IMG/VR virus record: IMGVR_UViG_2724679073_000003
Reading direction: 5' to 3' (one strand)
Source: a virus
Taxonomy: Duplodnaviria > Heunggongvirae > Uroviricota > Caudoviricetes
Length of the DNA stretch: 64,000 nt
The notes below the pieces were generated by a model, which was not told the origin of the DNA, searched no databases, and worked only from the letters and a program-made list of their open reading frames with translations. Positions 35,380 through 41,438 of this stretch are shown one piece after another. The position numbers and the translations under genes are program-made. The stretch's first letter is position 1. Every line of letters starts with the position of its first letter.

Positions 35380-35886
35380 TTGAGTATTTTCAATAAACAC
35401 GCACACCAGGAACGTCCGTATATCGTCATAGTTGATATTGATGGAACAATATCAGAGGCAACTGAAGACAGACTGCATTTGCTTCCGCCACCAGGTAAAG
35501 GTGCATTAACAAAGGACTGGAACGAGTTTAATCTCGCCTGTGACACTGATACTCCCATAACTCCAGTTATTGATATTGTGCGCCAGTTATTTAACGTTTA
35601 CACGGTCTGGTTTGTAACCGGGCGCTGTGAGATCGCAAGGGATAAAACACGAGCCTGGCTGCGGAAGTACGTAACAAACGGGGCTGAGCCTTTGCTATCT
35701 ATGCGTCCTGCCACCGATGACAGAAATGACGGCCCAGCAAAGATTGATCTCCTTAAGAAAATTGGTCTAAGTAAAATCGCGTTCGCGCTGGAAGATAAGA
35801 TTGAAGTGGCGCGTGTTTTCAGGAGGCACGGCGTGCTTACGTTAATGGTCAGGGAGTATGAAAACGCGCTTCTCCATCAACAATAA
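35380..35886 (+). CDS. HAD-superfamily phosphatase (possible pap position)
   Basis: Motif I VIVDIDGTIS; motif II VWFVTGR; lysine/aspartate motifs downstream. Confidence 0.6.
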   Translation: MSIFNKHAHQERPYIVIVDIDGTISEATEDRLHLLPPPGKGALTKDWNEFNLACDTDTPITPVIDIVRQLFNVYTVWFVTGRCEIARDKTRAWLRKYVTNGAEPLLSMRPATDDRNDGPAKIDLLKKIGLSKIAFALEDKIEVARVFRRHGVLTLMVREYENALLHQQ

Positions 35887-35902
35887 TTGCTCTAATAAAT
35901 AT
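35886..35902 (+). promoter_or_regulatory. C1 operator
   Basis: ATTGCTCTAATAAATAT 16/17. Confidence 0.7.
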
Positions 35903-36080: not shown

Positions 36081-36662
36081 ATGAAAGGCGAAGTGAAAGA
36101 GCGCGGCATGATTTTTAACGATGAGATGGTCCGGGCAATTCTTGGCGGGAATAAAACACAGACTCGCAGGATTGTTGAAGAAAAATTCTATGGACGGGCA
36201 GTGGCCGCAGAGTTGCTTGCCAAGCATTGTCCATATGGTCAACCTGGCGATCGTATTTGGGTTCGCGAAACCTACCGGGTACATGGCAAAGCGACGGACG
36301 TCGCAACGCTGGTTTATCGCGCAAGCGTGCGTAACTCCTGGACAGAACAAACGCACCGGGTTCCGGTCGAGGTTTGTAATAAACCAGTATCAGAAAAGTG
36401 GACGCCATCAATTCACATGCCGCGCTGGGCATCGCGCATTCTTCTGGAAATTACCAACGTGCGCGTTGAGCGGTTGAACGATATCAGCGAATGCGATGCA
36501 AGGGCTGAGGGCGCACCAACAGAATCGACCCTCATTGGCGATAAGCATTACCCAGGTTTCCGTAGCCTATGGAAATCAATTTATGGCGAAGATAGTTGGA
36601 ACGCTAATCCCTGGGTGTGGGTAATCGAGTTTGAGCGTATTCAGGGGGCAACCAGTGAGTAA
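36081..36662 (+). CDS. ASCH (PUA-like) domain protein
   Basis: MVRAILGGNKTQTRRI ... PGDRIWVRE ... HMPRWASRILLEI. Confidence 0.55.
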   Translation: MKGEVKERGMIFNDEMVRAILGGNKTQTRRIVEEKFYGRAVAAELLAKHCPYGQPGDRIWVRETYRVHGKATDVATLVYRASVRNSWTEQTHRVPVEVCNKPVSEKWTPSIHMPRWASRILLEITNVRVERLNDISECDARAEGAPTESTLIGDKHYPGFRSLWKSIYGEDSWNANPWVWVIEFERIQGATSE

Positions 36663-37299
36663 CCGTTTTTACATGATGTGCTTGCGTGAAACTGTGGGTA
36701 ATAACGCCTCATTCCATTGCCATAACGGCAATGGTTACAGTTCTGATATCGATCGCGCTCATATTTACACGCTGGAAGAAGCCCAAAAAGCCTGGAATTG
36801 TGGGCGAGATATCGATCAGCCTGTTTGTGCCGATAGTGTGGATGCAATGGCTGTGTGGCACGTTGATTGCCAGTACATCCCTACAGAAAGCCTGATTGAG
36901 TCAGATTGCACTGAGTATGTGGCCTACAAAAAAGGTAGCTGGAACGGCAACGATGTTTACTGGCTTCAACACGGTGGATTGCCAACAGATGACTTCAGTA
37001 AAGCGACCATCTTTAGCGTCGTCAACAAAAACGAACCAGGAATAGTTTGGTTGCCATTTTCCATTGCTGATGCAGCAAAGCGCCGGACGTTCAATATCAA
37101 TAACTTTAACCGCAGAACAATGGTTCAGGGCGCAGGGTTGGTCATGCCTGACTGGTTGAAAGAGCAGAACAGAAGAAAGAAGTCGCGAAGCGGGAAGGTG
37201 CGTTGGAATTGTCCGCATTGCGGAAAAATAACCTGGCAGTACAGCCCATATGATTTTGAAGGCTGTAGTGATTACAACTGTGAAGGATGGCGAGAATGA
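36654..37299 (+). CDS. Cys-rich protein with C-terminal zinc ribbon
   Basis: NCPHCGKITWQYSPYDFEGCSDYNCEGW; start uncertain (GTG 36654 or ATG 36673). Confidence 0.45.
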
Positions 37300-38162
37300 C
37301 AATTGACTATCAGGTACTGCGTGAGGCGGCAGAAAAGGCAACACCAGACGAATGGGTCGCATTTATTTCGACGGATACTGGTACTTATGCGGTGCACACG
37401 CCCGGTGATGAACGATGTGAAGACGTTATCAAATGGACCGGCTTTGATGGACAGAAAAATGCAGAGAACAACGCTCGTTATGTTGCCGCGTTCAACCCAA
37501 AGGTTGCACTGGAGCTGCTTGGTGAAATTAAGCGCCTGGAGGACACAAATATTGATGCTATGTGTCGAATTGCAGAGCTAGAGACTAATCTCGCGGCGCT
37601 GGCAGCGGAGAATGCGGCGCTGAAGGCCGGGGCTATGTATTTCTCATATGGCTCTGAATTTAGTTTCGAGTGTCACAAAACTGCTGAGGAGGCTATCGCT
37701 GCTGCTGAGGCTGCAATTGACGACTATAGAGGCGATGCTTGCGATGGATGGAGCGAAGAGGTCGAAAGCATTTGCTGGGGGGTAATTATTCAGCAGGCAA
37801 CCAAGGTCGGTGAACGCAAGAAGAGGAAATGCGACAGAGTATCACCATGGATTGAAAGAGTTTGTGATTATGAGCTTCGACCTAATGTCGAAACCCCAGC
37901 CACCGATGCTTTCCTGTCTGAAATTCGTGCGGAAGCACGCAACGAGGGGATTAACTATACCGCCAGCCGTCTTGCTGCTGCGTTCAATCACGGATTTATC
38001 AATAAGTCTTTGCGTGAAGTTTTCGACGTTACACGCATGATTTTGTCAGCGAAAGAAGAGTTGGCTAATGAAGCGCATCCGATTGATGGCCTGTCTGGTG
38101 AATATGCGGAGAAATCCCTTGAAGAATGGGCGGAACAAATTCGCAAAGGAAGCAGCCAGTGA
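37287..38162 (+). CDS. Paralog family member 1 (IDYQ-LRE-AEK N-terminus, PATDAFL and RKG C-terminus)
   Basis: Shares N-terminal TIDYQVLREAAEKATPDEW and C-terminal PATDAFLSEIRAE ... AEQIRKGSSQ with the two downstream genes. Confidence 0.55.
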   Translation: MARMTIDYQVLREAAEKATPDEWVAFISTDTGTYAVHTPGDERCEDVIKWTGFDGQKNAENNARYVAAFNPKVALELLGEIKRLEDTNIDAMCRIAELETNLAALAAENAALKAGAMYFSYGSEFSFECHKTAEEAIAAAEAAIDDYRGDACDGWSEEVESICWGVIIQQATKVGERKKRKCDRVSPWIERVCDYELRPNVETPATDAFLSEIRAEARNEGINYTASRLAAAFNHGFINKSLREVFDVTRMILSAKEELANEAHPIDGLSGEYAEKSLEEWAEQIRKGSSQ

Positions 38163-38449
38163 ATATCGACACGACAATAACGATCGATACGCTCCTAAAT
38201 ACCGGTCTGGCACTTCTCGGTTGGCTTTACATCATGTCCCGCACATGGCGATGGCTGGGTTCCATTTTCCTAAAACAGTGGAAAAAACGGCGCAAACAGG
38301 AACTACGCCAGAAGGCATTAGAAGCGTTCTATGACGCATTTGAGCTTAGCCGCATTGAACCAGGTACAACAGCCAGGATAGCGACAAAAGGCGACCTGAT
38401 GATAGTGATGTTCCGACAGGAGAGAGCAGAGAAAGGGGAATCAGCATGA
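38158..38449 (+). CDS. Small membrane protein
   Basis: GTG start overlapping upstream stop; TM LLNTGLALLGWLYIM then basic stretch. Confidence 0.4.
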
Positions 38450-39180
38450 AATTTTCCAAATTTTCTGAGTTGGTGAATCGTATTTTGTCCAACAACCACA
38501 GCCATCGTCGCGATATGGATGTAACAATCGTTGTTCATTCGCCTGGCAGCATTGGTTCAACACCTTCAGTTGAGGTTCAGTCAATTCACGCTGGTTTTGA
38601 TTGGGATTCCGGGAAAGTGCTTATTTTCCCATCACAGCCACTGACCACGCTAACACCAGAACAGATTACTGATATCACTGATAGTGTGCGCAAAGGTCAG
38701 TCTTGGCACGCATATCAGGAATACAAGAAGCATCAAGAGCAGTTGGAAAAATTGTCGATTGAACTGGATGCCGCAAAACAGCGCATTGCAGAGCTGGAGG
38801 GTAATCGCACGGCGCTGGCAGTCGAGAATGAGCTGGCTCGTAAGGCAGTTCAGGCATTCTGCGATGTTGTTGGCGACAACACCGAGGTTATCGCTGAGGT
38901 GGTTGGGCGAGATGGCGTTCTGGTTATTTTGGAGGCCATGAAGGCAACAGGAAATATGCCAGCCACCGATGCTTTCCTGGCTGAAGTGCGGGCGCAGGGC
39001 GTGGATGCTGCTATAGAAGCTGCAAAAAATCTGGTGGCCCAAGAATATGAGTATAAGGATTTCAAAGCGGCGCAGAGTGATTGCTGTATGCACCCTGGTT
39101 CAGACCTGGTAGGGAAGGTTGAAATGACTGAGTGGTTAGTTGACTTTGCTGCCCAGCTTCGCAAAGGAGGCAACCAGTGA
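38446..39180 (+). CDS. Paralog family member 2
   Basis: Contains PATDAFLAEVRAQG ... AAQLRKGGNQ and coiled-coil LEKLSIELDAAKQRIAELEGNRTALAVENE matching member 1. Confidence 0.55.
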   Translation: MKFSKFSELVNRILSNNHSHRRDMDVTIVVHSPGSIGSTPSVEVQSIHAGFDWDSGKVLIFPSQPLTTLTPEQITDITDSVRKGQSWHAYQEYKKHQEQLEKLSIELDAAKQRIAELEGNRTALAVENELARKAVQAFCDVVGDNTEVIAEVVGRDGVLVILEAMKATGNMPATDAFLAEVRAQGVDAAIEAAKNLVAQEYEYKDFKAAQSDCCMHPGSDLVGKVEMTEWLVDFAAQLRKGGNQ

Positions 39181-39821
39181 GCAAGATTGATTATCAAAAG
39201 CTTCGTGAAATCGCTGAAAAAACAAAAATTGCTGGTGAAGCACCTGTAATGCCCTTCGATCAGCGAATTAATGCGCTTAACGATTTTATGAAGCACTTTT
39301 CGCCAGATATCGCGCTGGCACTGCTGGATGAACTGGAAAGAAACCAGCAATACATCAAATCACGCGACCAGGAGAACGAGGAAATTGCGCTAACGGTAGG
39401 GAAGCTGCGTGTTGAGCTGGAAGGCAAAGACAGCAAAATAGCCAATCTTACCGCCGAACGCGATGCTCTTCGTGAAGGTGAGATGGGCGACGCTAGGCAT
39501 AGCAACACACGGGCCGCAGCTGATATCTACTTCCAACTGGTCGAGGAGTGCGAAATTCCTGCTGGCGGATCTCTGGTCGAGTACGTTGACGATATGCGCG
39601 AGAAGCTGGAAGCCGCAGAGAAGCGCATTGCAGAGTTAGAAAGTGGTTCTCAGGCACAAAAGTTAGTTGAAGCAATCATTGTTGCGATAGAAAACGAACA
39701 GGAAAGGCTTTTTGATGAAGATTACCTAATGGATTCGAAAGAATGCATTGACGTAATTCGTGAAGAAGTAAAGCGATGGAATGATTCCCGTGCCGCTGGC
39801 ATTCGCATCAAAGGAGAGTGA
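39177..39821 (+). CDS. Paralog family member 3
   Basis: N-terminal KIDYQKLREIAEKTKIAGEAP and ALALLDELERNQ coiled coil parallel to member 1. Confidence 0.55.
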   Translation: MSKIDYQKLREIAEKTKIAGEAPVMPFDQRINALNDFMKHFSPDIALALLDELERNQQYIKSRDQENEEIALTVGKLRVELEGKDSKIANLTAERDALREGEMGDARHSNTRAAADIYFQLVEECEIPAGGSLVEYVDDMREKLEAAEKRIAELESGSQAQKLVEAIIVAIENEQERLFDEDYLMDSKECIDVIREEVKRWNDSRAAGIRIKGE

Positions 39822-39823
39822 TA

Positions 39824-40086
39824 TGGCAACTTTAACAAAAAAAGAACGGGCATGGTTGAACGAATTACAGGACGTTCTTGATCGCTGCCCATCACCGAAA
39901 AAAATTGGTTTTTACACCATTGGCGATAAAAGCATTTACCTGTATGACCTGCGCCGCATGGATGAAATCATGGAGGCTCTTGATAATCGTTCGTCGATGG
40001 ATTGGTGTGTTGCTGTCCATGATATGAATGCCGGATTTGATGAAAAGATTTTATTCCCTTCATCAGTTGAAAGCACAGCAGGATAA
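39824..40086 (+). CDS. Hypothetical protein
   Basis: ORF beginning MATLTKKERAWLNELQDVL. Confidence 0.45.
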
Positions 40087-40122
40087 GGACTAACACATGA
40101 CAACATGGGAAAGGAAAGTGAT

Positions 40123-40638
40123 ATGGCGTTAACACACCACGAACTCTGTCAGATTGCGTACAAGTTCCTTAAGCGCAACGGGTTCAAGGTTTGCTTTCAT
40201 GACCGCTTTGTTGCTGTAACCAGTACCGGAGAACAGCCAGATGCTATGGGATTCAGAAATTCAGCATCATGCCTGATAGAGGCGAAGTGTTCTCGTGCTG
40301 ACTTGTTGGCAGATAGAAAAAAGCGTTTCCGTAAAAATCCCTCACTTGGCATGGGCGACTGGCGATTCTTTATTAGTGAGCCGGAAATTATTTCAGTTGA
40401 GGATTTACCTCCCGGCTGGGGATTACTTCACGTTGTTAACGGAAGAGTACGGAAAGTACATGGATGGCCCAGGGGTAATTGCTGTTGGGGTAATCCTGAC
40501 GATAAGCCATTTACTGGGAATAAGCAGGTTGAATGCGATTACATGTTATCTGCATTAAGGCGCATGGAGCTAAGAGGACACCTTAATGAAATATATGACG
40601 GTGTAATTGTTAATAAGAAAGAAGGAAACGCGGCATGA
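40123..40638 (+). CDS. PD-(D/E)xK nuclease-like protein
   Basis: GEQPDAMGF ... CLIEAKCS (D ... E-x-K arrangement); RBS GGAAAGGAAAG before ATG 40123. Confidence 0.45.
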   Translation: MALTHHELCQIAYKFLKRNGFKVCFHDRFVAVTSTGEQPDAMGFRNSASCLIEAKCSRADLLADRKKRFRKNPSLGMGDWRFFISEPEIISVEDLPPGWGLLHVVNGRVRKVHGWPRGNCCWGNPDDKPFTGNKQVECDYMLSALRRMELRGHLNEIYDGVIVNKKEGNAA

Positions 40639-41438
40639 TCACTATTACCAATAAGAAACAGTATCCCAGCGAGCAATATCTTAATGAGCTGATCACCAAC
40701 ATAGAGTTTGCTGCAAGGGCACCAGTTGAAGTCGTGAGAGCAATGGCAGCAGAGCTACAGAAGCGGCGCGAAGCTGATAGCGCAGAACCAGTTGCTTATA
40801 TTTTCAAACATCCGGCCGGGAAATTATTCTGGGCTTTAACGGATGAAAGCAATAAAGATCAATCGGACGTTATTCCTGTTTATGCCGCCCCTCCAGTGCC
40901 AGTAGTACCTGCTGCATTACCTGAGAACGACGATGAGGACGGGCATGACATTGATTATCTTGAGCCATCTGAAGTTTACTCGCTTGGGCGAATAGCTGGC
41001 TGGAACGCCTGCCGTGCTGCCATGCTTCATGGTGCCGAACCTGTAAGCCAAACTTACAAGTTGCCTCCCCTGTCATCCAGAGAAGTAAACGACGCGGCAT
41101 GGAAATTACACAACATGCTGACTGAACACGGCCCTCTAAATGGGTGTCAGTTCAACAATTTGAAAGAGTGCTTCTATGAGGCATTAAAGGTCGCAATGCG
41201 CAACTATCCGGTAACTCCGGATGGTTGGATAAGCTGTAGTGAGCGAATGCCGGATACCAAAACAGCCGTTCTTGTTGCCGTGGAGTTTGACAGGAAAGGT
41301 GACTGGCGAATGAAATGGGCGACTTACATCCCGGGGCATCCTGACGCTAATGATGGGTGGATAATTCCTGGTGCGTCGTGGAAACCGTCACACTGGATGC
41401 GGCTACCAGAACCGCCGCAGGAGGTTAACCGTGGCTAA
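40635..41438 (+). CDS. DUF551-like phage protein
   Basis: C-terminal DGWISCSERMPD ... VLVAVEF ... W pattern. Confidence 0.5.
   Translation: MITITNKKQYPSEQYLNELITNIEFAARAPVEVVRAMAAELQKRREADSAEPVAYIFKHPAGKLFWALTDESNKDQSDVIPVYAAPPVPVVPAALPENDDEDGHDIDYLEPSEVYSLGRIAGWNACRAAMLHGAEPVSQTYKLPPLSSREVNDAAWKLHNMLTEHGPLNGCQFNNLKECFYEALKVAMRNYPVTPDGWISCSERMPDTKTAVLVAVEFDRKGDWRMKWATYIPGHPDANDGWIIPGASWKPSHWMRLPEPPQEVNRG

Follow-up and report, generated by a model that had tools for sequence, protein, structure and literature searches.

Three neighbouring genes of a P1-like phage-plasmid probably encode mosaic Ead/Ea22- and EaE-type accessory proteins with exchangeable modules

We analysed a window of 64,000 nt (the whole stretch of DNA under study; all coordinates refer to it) and focused on three genes, here called A (37287..38162), B (38446..39180) and C (39177..39821), all on the plus strand. 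It is probable that these genes encode mosaic accessory proteins of the Ead/Ea22–EaE(Oad2) type, in which swappable modules are separated by short islands, the last island being a putative ribosome-binding site. The family itself is already known, as its members are catalogued as ead/Ea22-like proteins and both their mosaicism and their multi-copy occurrence have been published; as a genome feature the locus is ordinary and corresponds to a region of P1-like phage-plasmids known to vary. The three open reading frames at 37287, 38446 and 39177 were all present as given in the preliminary description, where they were regarded as a tandem triplet. They are indeed neighbours, but they are not strictly contiguous, as a DUF4752 gene (38159..38449, plus strand) between A and B had been missed.

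Genomic setting of the genes

The window belongs to a P1-like phage-plasmid of E. coli, with pmgS, pap and 14 C1 operators present. The operon holding the three genes is headed by a promoter-like site with a C1 repressor operator at 35858..35902 (plus strand; ATTGCTCTAATAAATAT, with 1 mismatch; the operator itself at 35886-35902), which by its position is the counterpart of OpmgT/Op88 of P1 and Op(hea) of P7. Genes A, B and C are located in the Op88/pmgT slot, the variable cargo slot of the C1-repressed early operon, and the region of this slot has been counted as one of eight highly variable regions among P1-like phage-plasmids (PMC9603915). In P7 the same slot, downstream of pap and the C1 operator, is the Upf88.3 / pmgT–humD variable region, and Upf88.3 has already been annotated as similar to P22 Ead. 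The number of Ead genes is one in P7, none in reference P1 and three in the present element, which, unlike the P7 slot, also has other lambdoid-type cargo (DUF4752, DUF551).

The neighbours of the three genes are pap, phrog_874, phrog_2457, DUF4752, DUF551 and similar genes. The known EaE/Oad2 genes lie in the erf / abc2 recombination locus, whereas A and B do not, and no adjoining erf, abc2 or gam recombination-related gene was found among the neighbouring genes inspected. The phrog_874 gene (36081..36662, plus strand) is unrelated to A and B but carries at its end a copy of the A/B-type gene-boundary sequence (GGGGGCAACCAGTGA, 36644..36658, plus strand), within which lies the GTG start, at 36655, of the phrog_2457 gene (36655..37299, plus strand). 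The DUF4752 gene encodes 96 aa from a GTG start, with an N-terminal hydrophobic helix, and its end (gagAAAGGGGAatcagcATGA) overlaps the start of B. Following C is a phrog_1714 gene of 87 aa (39823..40086, plus strand), the ATG of which is located 1 nt past the C stop codon.

Module composition of the three proteins

The proteins follow the plan of N-module, coiled-coil stalk, central cassette and C-module, and three short DNA islands, J1 to J3, separate the modules. J1 encodes the coiled-coil patch …RIAELE…ALAAEN; J2, about 45 nt, encodes (E)TPATDAFLAEVRA; J3, about 21-27 nt, encodes (I/L)RKGxxQ-stop, or IRIKGE-stop in C.

Gene A encodes 291 aa from 37287, but the ATG at 37296, which forms an ATGA overlap with the upstream stop codon and is the choice of PGAP, is the likelier start and would give 288 aa. 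In the protein, an Ead/Ea22 N-module is joined through a coiled coil to an EaE-type body. It matched Pfam family PF13935 (Ead_Ea22; InterPro IPR025153) with 70.1 bits over residues 5-129, compared with a gathering score of 27 bits, and it also matched phrog_368 and phrog_614 (2.8e-50 for the latter). In BLASTP it aligned to P22 EaE with 35% identity over 134 aa (E 3e-21) and to Oad2 with E 8e-8. Its N-module (37296..37565, plus strand, as are all features below) consists of the IDYQVLREAAEKA helix, a three-strand insert and the start of a long helix; such an insert has been described for Ea22 of Stx phages (PMC7093339, PMC10834534), with which A shares the N-module only, the Stx-type beta insert included. 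J1 of A (37566..37620, RIAELETNLAALAAENAAL) is followed by the central cassette (37632..37889; residues 116-201, with five Cys; phrog_21696), which is 98-100% conserved among proteins whose N and C modules differ. J2 (37890..37931, ETPATDAFLSEIRA) leads into the C-module (37929..38138), which is of the P22 EaE type (C-module class 1, 35% identical to that of EaE). J3 (38140..38162, ttcgcAAAGGAAGcagccaGTGA) codes for (I)RKGSSQ-stop, and within it lie the Shine-Dalgarno site of the DUF4752 gene and the GTG with which that gene starts in overlap with A.

Gene B encodes 244 aa. Its N-module, phrog_6026, is unlike that of A, and a coiled coil and a body of the EaE/Oad2 type follow. The protein matched phrog_368 at 1.9e-75 and phrog_614 at 2.8e-25, and aligned to Oad2 with 28% identity over 170 aa (BLASTP, E 5e-7). 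B itself gave no Pfam match in the PF13935 profile search, but relatives of 246 aa that are 83% identical to it do carry PF13935. Its J1 (38782..38836, RIAELEGNRTALAVEN), central cassette (38830..38952, ELARKAVQAFCDVVGDN…MKATG), J2 (38953..38994, NMPATDAFLAEVRA) and J3 (39158..39180, ttcgcAAAGGAGGcaaccaGTGA) were located in the same order; J3 codes for (L)RKGGNQ-stop and likewise contains the Shine-Dalgarno site of gene C, whose GTG start overlaps the end of B. The close relatives of B vary almost only in the central cassette, for which at least 3 alternatives were found. The exact A and B proteins are already in public databases, each on at least 1000 contigs.

The plan of EaE and Oad2, namely a stalk ending in (A/V)LA(A/V)EN, a cassette, (E)TPATDAFLAEVRA, a C-module and Q(I/L)RKGxxQ-stop, is found in both A and B, and phrog_614 is common to A, B, P22 EaE (4.6e-55) and HK446 Oad2 (8.3e-53). 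The central and C cassettes of Oad2 differ from those of A and B, and the overall identity of 28-29% resides mainly in the junction islands; in the natural proteins P0092 and P0105, the Oad2 N-module is fused to the central and C modules of A.

Gene C encodes 214 aa from a GTG start and is of the lambda Ea22 / P22 EaD type. The protein matched PF13935 with 68.3 bits (residues 2-155) and fell in phrog_250 together with lambda Ea22 and P22 EaD, as well as matching phrog_368; the profile search gave no phrog_614 match. Residues 1-88 align with residues 1-79 of lambda Ea22 at 56% identity (BLASTP, E 8e-23), covering the N-module and coiled coil, and the two proteins have in common the N-terminal helix, the stalk 'LLDExERNQQYIKxRDQENExIALTVGKLRVELE' and the AGIRIKGE-stop end, which is identical in DNA. 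The alignment stops at residue 88, and the C-terminal domain of C is unrelated to the solved domain of lambda Ea22 (an NMR dimer fold); apart from a spurious hit to YbaB, C had no PDB sequence match at E <= 1. The two genes differ in location, as lambda ea22 sits in the pL-driven lambdoid exo-xis region and C in the C1/Op88 operon of a P1-like phage-plasmid. The boundary island of C (39795..39821, gctggcattcgcatcAAAGGAGagTGA) supplies the Shine-Dalgarno site of the following gene. The C-terminal tripeptide (K/R)GE is present in C (IRIKGE), while A ends in RKGSSQ and B in RKGGNQ. The exact C protein is public as WP_062810339.1.

Similarity among the three proteins was assessed by BLASTP and by Smith-Waterman z scores from composition-preserving shuffles. 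A and C are similar at their N-termini, in the Ead N-module (A6-117 versus C4-103, 29% identity, E 4e-6; z = 10.6, with 0 of 500 shuffles as high). The similarity of B and C is limited to the coiled-coil patch LEAAEKRIAELE (E 0.002, z = 7.2). A and B are similar in the C-terminal part only (A204-291 versus B172-244, E 9e-5; z = 10.1). The conserved C-terminus described for them resolves into two islands, PATDAFLxExRA and Q(I/L)RKGxxQ, with nothing similar in the 50-70 residues between J2 and J3 (z = 0.2, no BLASTP alignment); downstream of the stalk, islands are all that A and B share. The central regions of the three proteins are unrelated (z < 0), as had been stated. The AF2 monomer models were of low confidence (pLDDT 46 and 49). 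Taken as one mosaic superfamily linked by PF13935, phrog_368, phrog_614 and phrog_250, the three proteins do form the paralogous family proposed.

Junction islands and natural recombinants

At the DNA level, the islands of A and B form repeats of 49 nt (84% identity; J1 of A against B 38782-38830), 36 nt (89%; J2 of A against B 38959-38994) and 23 nt (91%), with E down to 5e-11. We collected viral loci from about 200 phage contigs by means of the junction patterns themselves; this is a biased sample, and the combination counts below are counts among the matches listed. For J2, 17 classes of central cassette and 16 classes of C-module occur among these matches in at least 43 combinations in 70 ORFs. 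The third-codon positions of J2 are conserved at 0.93-1.00, and conservation falls abruptly to background at codon -3, although the islands may be so alike at synonymous sites because they descend from a recent common ancestor, and not through selection.

Domain shuffling, which had been suggested from the three genes, is borne out by natural recombinants. Alignment showed that P0091 combines the N-module of B with the centre and C-module of A, P0110 the N- and C-modules of A with the centre of B, and P0087 the N-module and centre of A with the C-module of B; correspondingly, the identity of single modules to those of A is bimodal, being either at least 94% or at most 37%. In gene A of locus L210 the cassette has been swapped, and the two breakpoints, at nt 319 and nt 601 of the gene, coincide with the edges of J1 and J2. 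The B-type cassette of this gene is only 90% identical to the B carried by the L210 genome, so the swap does not demonstrate an exchange of tandem copies within a single genome.

J3 is found in a constant layout, consisting of AAAGGAG, a spacer of 5-7 nt and a start codon in overlap with the stop codon or directly next to it. The 15-nt J3 junction has 3 copies in the window where 0.04 are expected, one of them after an unrelated gene. Of the IKGE-type instances listed, 119/122 show TGA followed 1 nt later by a start codon, and 11 upstream and 19 downstream classes occur among them in at least 40 combinations; the downstream class 'MATLTKKERAW…', to which the phrog_1714 gene belongs, accounts for at least 16 cases. 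Likewise, 117 of the 124 RKGGNQ-type instances listed have an ORF of at least 40 aa starting from the overlapping GTG, with 7 x 15 classes in at least 33 combinations among the matches, and two of the upstream classes are not Ead-like. The J3 sequence also closes unrelated non-Ead proteins, including HNH/AP2-like ones. In the remaining tail variants the geometry is unchanged, the residues after KG varying in number and identity so that ATGA/GTGA falls 5-10 nt past AAAGGAG. From its sequence, J3 is the predicted Shine-Dalgarno site of the next gene, and the conserved C-terminal motif, previously taken as a protein feature, is on this evidence largely a gene-boundary signal at the DNA level. J3 would be kept chiefly as a ribosome-binding site and translational-coupling signal, and this role would account for the published '+GE' motif of Ea22 proteins. 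In lambda itself, no gene starts directly after the IKGE boundary; the Shine-Dalgarno role therefore cannot alone explain why the sequence persists.

J3 is short conserved gene-boundary DNA between interchangeable, unrelated flanks. The concept of boundary sequences in lambdoid phages is cited in PMC3029335, and the lambdoid boundary or linker sequences (Susskind & Botstein 1978; Clark et al. 2001, HK620) are likewise short, conserved and located at gene boundaries. J3 and the copy at 36644 resemble them in joining stop codon, Shine-Dalgarno site and overlapping start between interchangeable genes. J1 and J2, however, are intragenic, with domains shuffled within one reading frame, and the islands differ from the lambdoid sequences also in occurring in a P1-like genome, which reveals exchange between the lambdoid and P1-like gene pools. 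The islands may act as homology patches at which homologous or homeologous recombination reshuffles the cassettes, and the enzymes could be of the Red/Erf/RecT type or of the host; Red is reported to recombine diverged DNA (PMC2327257).

Alternatively, ALAAEN, PATDAFL and RKG/IKGE might be kept for reasons at the protein level, for instance in oligomerisation, in binding a common partner or as a tag for degradation, their roles in DNA being incidental. The invariance of these amino acids in very different contexts, the persistence of the IKGE end in lambda and the position of J1 inside the coiled coil, which is a structural element, are in line with this explanation; but selection on the protein does not need the 93-100% conservation of four-fold degenerate third positions in J2, nor does it fit with J3 ending unrelated proteins and with residues after KG that vary exactly as the placement of ATGA/GTGA requires, and we regard it as quite unlikely. 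That the similarities are low-complexity or coiled-coil artefacts among unrelated genes, as the long helices predicted in all three proteins and the confinement of B–C similarity to a coiled-coil patch might suggest, can be dismissed, because the N-termini of A and C and the C-terminal islands of A and B each reach z = 10 and lie outside the coiled coil, the curated Pfam and PHROG matches are far above threshold, and the repeats are seen in DNA.

Possible functions of the proteins

Ea22 has been described as a mosaic, pro-lysogenic tetramer whose C-terminal domain is variable, and genomes are reported to carry two or three variants of it (PMC7093339, PMC10834534). The mosaic build, the variable C-terminal domain and the two or three variants per genome are matched here, and A, B and C are, like ea22, early, repressor-controlled genes. 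By analogy, C may be an Ea22-like modulator of the lysis/lysogeny outcome, and all three proteins would be made on infection or induction, with the coiled coil possibly mediating oligomerisation and the variable cassettes possibly binding proteins of the host or of rival elements. For the EaE branch, a preprint of July 2026 reported that Oad2 (HK446 gp27) binds and inhibits the P2 OLD nuclease (OLD tetramer), that an HK75 homologue 54% identical to Oad2 is inactive against OLD, and that Oad2 is related to EaE and in some cases fused to EaD/Ea22. On this analogy A and B are candidate Oad2-like inhibitors of defence proteins, and for these two the counter-defence role suggested in the preliminary description is plausible but tentative. 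Since the HK75 homologue is inactive at 54% identity and A and B reach no more than 28-29% identity with Oad2, activity against OLD itself is not transferable to them. Searches of Pfam, PDB and PADLOC gave no match to any variable module; the PADLOC defence models were matched by neither A nor C, and by B with one weak coiled-coil match of 13 bits.

It is conceivable, though on balance somewhat unlikely, that all three proteins are purely pro-lysogenic developmental modulators like Ea22 of lambda and Stx phages, with no counter-defence role, and that their cassette diversity is adaptation to differing host physiology or stress pathways. [quoted passage not shown] However, phrog_614 places A and B in the EaE/Oad2 branch, whose one characterised member directly inhibits a defence nuclease; in addition, lysogeny of P1 is plasmid-based and controlled unlike that of lambda, and reference P1 lacks these genes, which are thus dispensable for its developmental switch. 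Superinfection exclusion, with the proteins made from the prophage and blocking other phages, would suit the accessory 'moron-like' cargo region and the membrane-like helix of the intervening DUF4752 protein, but it is very unlikely, as an operon under a C1 operator is expected to be off in the lysogen, neither PADLOC nor exclusion models were matched, A, B and C have no membrane or signal features, and the known family members serve the phage during infection.

Implications

A more far-reaching reading, which we consider unlikely but worth stating, is that the islands constitute a cassette-exchange architecture of the lambdoid and P1-like pools, in which a fixed coiled-coil scaffold receives 'head' cassettes swapped for anti-defence specificities; homology patches of 25-50 nt would swap the heads, and the targets would be OLD-family and other host defence proteins. 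If so, A and B would be a pair of Oad2-type inhibitors that carry different loads, their tandem array would amount to a repertoire, and the synonymous conservation of the islands would reflect selection for exchangeability and not just recent descent.

The conserved ends of Ea22 and EaE proteins, including the '+GE' motif that is unexplained in the literature, find their best explanation in the ribosome-binding site of the following gene together with the overlap of start and stop codons. These ends are embedded in a portable boundary sequence, which cautions against calling such motifs protein features. As A and B are built on the same module plan as Oad2, the recently reported OLD inhibitor, these widespread genes of P1-like phage-plasmids and their natural chimeras offer a ready panel for finding the cassette that sets anti-defence specificity.

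Locus and family assignment of the three genes

The window is from an E. coli P1-like (IncY) phage-plasmid. The P1 C1 operator consensus ATTGCTCTAATAAATTT matches 14 times across the whole window at up to three mismatches, against 0.38 expected (e.g. at 1428, 16880, 20156, 35886 and 52849), which confirms a P1-type immunity circuit. PmgS and Pap lie immediately upstream of the region, which is 99% identical to plasmids including pFORC64.1. A C1 operator at 35886-35902 (one mismatch) and a promoter-like site form the head of the operon, at the same position as P7 Op(hea) and P1 OpmgT/Op88. Two upstream genes of the operon (36081-37299), matching phrog_874 (193 aa) and phrog_2457 (214 aa from GTG 36655), are joined by a GGGGGCAACCAGTGA junction, and the phrog_2457 gene is also found directly 3' of RKGGNQ-ending genes in lambdoid contigs; from this shared junction and these neighbours, the whole operon looks built from lambdoid 'ea/nin-type' cargo genes.

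The three Ead/Ea22–EaE-family genes that follow are listed as ORFs on one strand: A (37287..38162, 291 aa), B (38446..39180, 244 aa) and C (39177..39821, 214 aa, GTG start). A likely starts at ATG 37296, in an overlap with the stop codon of the preceding gene; RefSeq plasmids use this start too. The preliminary description of a tandem family stands in that the genes share a strand, and has to be qualified in that a DUF4752 gene (38159..38449), whose 96-aa product has an N-terminal hydrophobic helix, lies between A and B and overlaps each of them by 4 nt, its GTG start at 38159 lying within the stop of A (GTGA) and its own end overlapping B as ATGA. The order A–DUF4752–B–C was found again in many IncY P1-like plasmids. 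In the corresponding slot, reference P1 carries pmgT-U-V and upfM-N-O without Ead genes, whereas P7 carries one, Upf88.3, annotated as Ead-like; pmgT–humD is one of eight highly variable regions in a survey of P1-like phage-plasmids (PMC9603915).

A and C passed the gathering score of PF13935 Ead_Ea22 (70 and 68 bits, respectively; threshold 27). All three proteins match phrog_368; A and B also match phrog_614, the best family for P22 EaE and HK446 gp27, and C matches phrog_250, as do lambda Ea22 and P22 EaD. Residues 158-288 of A are 35% identical to P22 EaE (E 3e-21), residues 81-244 of B 28% identical to HK446 gp27 (E 5e-7), and residues 1-88 of C 56% identical to lambda Ea22 (E 8e-23). A is composed of an Ead/Ea22 N-module joined to an EaE-type body, B of a different N-module (phrog_6026) and an EaE/Oad2-type body, and C is of the lambda Ea22/EaD type and differs in its C-terminal domain. 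At E <= 1e-3, database relatives number 4,678 for A and 3,804 for B, nearly all enterobacterial among the matches listed. Exact copies are present on at least 1000 contigs each for A and B and on a single contig for C (WP_062810339.1), and most of them already bear the name 'ead/Ea22-like family protein'. Neither the mosaic family nor the variable region in which it lies is new, and its exact proteins are already catalogued.

Searches with A, B and C gave no credible match among PDB sequences, nothing relevant in NCBIfam and no defence match in PADLOC. Lenient Pfam scans of six separate modules returned PF13935 for the N-module of A and otherwise weak coiled-coil noise only, and the variable modules had no match in Pfam, PDB or PADLOC. 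The AF2 models of A (mean pLDDT 45.8, 27-sequence alignment) and B (48.9, 13 sequences) are too poor for fold comparison and give a secondary-structure outline only.

Shared segments and unrelated centres

Pairwise comparison showed that A and C share an N-terminal region (29% identity over about 110 aa, E 4e-6; z = 10.6), A and B a C-terminal region (E 9e-5; z = 10.1), and B and C a coiled-coil patch only (E 0.002; z = 7.2), the z-scores being relative to composition-preserving shuffles. Such scores refute the possibility that the similarities are mere coiled-coil artefacts, and the existence of a three-gene family is confirmed. The central regions are, as originally proposed, unrelated to one another (z < 0). 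The proposal of shared ends holds for the A–C N-terminal region and for A and B at their C-termini; N-module homology between B and A is marginal (z = 2.0, reached by 25 of 500 shuffles) and is not claimed. The A–B C-terminal similarity lies wholly within two short islands, PATDAFLxExRA and Q(I/L)RKGxxQ, and the intervening 50-70 residues are unrelated (z = 0.2; no BLASTP alignment). At the DNA level, A and B share three repeats, J1 in the coiled-coil stalk (49 nt, 84%), J2 at PATDAFL (36 nt, 89%) and J3 at the gene end (23 nt, 91%).

Probable exchange of modules at J1 and J2

When A was aligned with its more divergent relatives, interchangeable blocks were seen, parted by the near-invariant junctions J1 (ALAAENAxLKAG), J2 (PATDAFL) and J3 ((I/L)RKG plus a tail of at most three residues). 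Identity to A per module is bimodal, either at least 94% or at most 37%, which indicates that the diversity arises from block replacement and not from gradual substitution. Natural proteins combine the N-module of B with the centre and C-module of A (P0091), the centre of B with the N- and C-modules of A (P0110), or the N-module and centre of A with the C-module of B (P0087 and P0088), and close relatives of B diverge nearly exclusively in a central cassette of about 45 aa. In L210, another P1-like plasmid, the gene in the slot of A equals A up to nt 319 (99%) and again from nt 601 (96%), numbered from ATG 37296, and carries a B-type cassette in between, with both breakpoints at the edges of the J1 and J2 patches. 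Recent gene conversion between the tandem copies within L210 is unsupported, since this cassette is only 90% identical to L210's own B, the neighbouring paralogue. The chimeras, the bimodal identities and the L210 swap bear out the domain shuffling that had been suspected.

Among 70 distinct PATDAFL ORFs from about 200 lambdoid viral contigs, 17 central-cassette classes and 16 C-module classes are joined through J2 in 43 combinations. When each combination is represented once, J2 stands out as an island of about 45 nt with sharp edges: conservation at third positions is 93-100% for four-fold degenerate codons (CCA GCC ACC GAT GCT TTC CTG GCT GAA), and by codon -3 identity is down to background (0.3-0.5). 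The J1 island is shorter (GCG CTG GCG GCG GAG AAT GCG).

A DUF551 protein is encoded at 40635-41438, with PF04448 at residues 197-262 and a mosaic N-part matching several PHROGs. 'AEPV' occurs in it at two places (DSAEPVAYIF and GAEPVSQTYKLP), and a motif 'ARIALASLxAEPV' is common to several genes 3' of Ead genes in viral contigs; these motifs suggest another shuffled family that has a junction motif of its own. DUF551 is also part of Ea22_V2 in Stx phages.

J3 as a probable gene-boundary signal

At all four junctions in the window, a Shine-Dalgarno core is followed by a 5-7 nt spacer and a start codon overlapping or abutting the stop: cgcAAAGGAAGcagccaGTGA at the end of A precedes the GTG of the DUF4752 gene, gagAAAGGGGAatcagcATGA at the end of the latter the ATG of B, cgcAAAGGAGGcaaccaGTGA at the end of B the GTG of C, and atcAAAGGAGagtgatATG at the end of C the ATG of gene 39823. 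The DUF4752 protein ends in EKGESA-stop, again AAAGGGGA with a spacer and ATGA. The 15-nt junction GGRRGCARCCAGTGA is present in three copies in the window, against 0.04 expected, and the first copy (36644) comes after an unrelated gene. The ends of C and of lambda ea22 are identical DNA (gctggcattcgcatcAAAGGAGagTGA) despite unrelated preceding domains.

A scan of a viral contig collection found at least 120 loci for each of the IKGE-type and RKGGNQ-type junctions; these loci were picked by the motif itself, and by chance an ATG or GTG is expected in about 36% of 14-nt stretches. Among the matches listed, the start codon lies 1 nt after TGA in 119 of 122 IKGE-type instances, which join 11 unrelated upstream C-terminal classes to 19 downstream gene classes in 40 combinations. 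An ORF of at least 40 aa begins at the overlapping GTG in 117 of the 124 RKGGNQ-type instances among the matches listed (33 combinations of 7 upstream with 15 downstream classes); some two thirds of the listed genes 3' of these junctions are Ead-like in turn, which makes tandem Ead arrays the usual arrangement. Further tail variants (VQS, ADK, KAA, GF, GGE and more) have the same geometry, in which the AAAGG(A/G) core supplies KG, the spacer supplies the additional residues, and ATGA or GTGA fixes the last one. From these sequences, the conserved C-terminal motif is most likely a gene-boundary signal, J3 also serving translational coupling to the next gene. The geometry would account for the '(K/R)GE tripeptide' of Ea22, described by Dydecka et al. 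(PMC7093339) as of 'significance unknown', and agrees with the older idea that lambdoid genomes contain short conserved boundary sequences (Clark 2001; Susskind & Botstein 1978, as cited in PMC3029335). The Shine-Dalgarno reading fails on lambda itself, the founding member, where the boundary is present with no ORF start behind it, ea8.5 being 191 nt away, in contrast to the listed IKGE-type junctions.

A degenerate copy (GGGAAAGGAAAGTGATATGGCG, 40086-40125) of the IKGE-type boundary AAAGGAGAGTGATATG lies upstream of a phrog_9263/631 gene (40123..40638), which probably starts at ATG 40123 (MALTHHELCQ…); no Ead gene precedes this copy here. In viral contigs, that gene is directly 3' of an IKGE-ending gene in 18 cases among the matches listed, and the boundary thus seems to travel with the downstream gene. 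Some AGIRIKGE-ending proteins among the matches listed are not Ead-like: one resembles an HNH/AP2-type homing endonuclease, and a second contains a P-loop-like segment (…VVVSGFTGCGKSAIAGEIE…). Homing endonucleases beside these boundaries could help to mobilise cassettes. One viral contig (IMGVR_UViG_3300018478_000065, 11159-12694) has three RKGxxQ-type junctions in a stretch of 1.5 kb, which indicates another array of at least three EaE/Ead-type genes.

Possible functions

Published work describes Ea22 as an early, non-essential, tetrameric protein in which a short N-region and a coiled coil are combined with a C-terminal domain that is variable, dimeric and acidic. It is mosaic in organisation, and single genomes are reported to carry two or three variants. 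Ea22 promotes lysogeny by an unknown mechanism, and by analogy all three proteins could be developmental modulators of this kind, a reading that we consider rather doubtful. HK446 gp27, named Oad2, binds the P2 OLD tetramer and blocks OLD activation; it is related to P22 EaE and at times fused to EaD/Ea22 proteins, and a homologue at 54% identity is inactive (July 2026 preprint). Oad2 has the same islands as A and B, namely J1 SLAAENAGMK, J2 ETPATDAFLAEVRAQ and J3 QLRKGGNQ-stop, and its N-module is joined to the central and C-modules of A in natural proteins such as P0092 and P0105. By this analogy, the counter-defence role suggested in the preliminary description has real support at the level of the family. 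It is not transferable to A or B, because their cassettes differ from those of Oad2, and the two may tentatively be regarded as candidate anti-defence proteins. Most likely, A, B and C would be coiled-coil oligomers that display exchangeable binding cassettes, shuffled through recombination at the three short DNA islands J1, J2 and J3, the last of which would double as the translational-coupling signal of the next gene.
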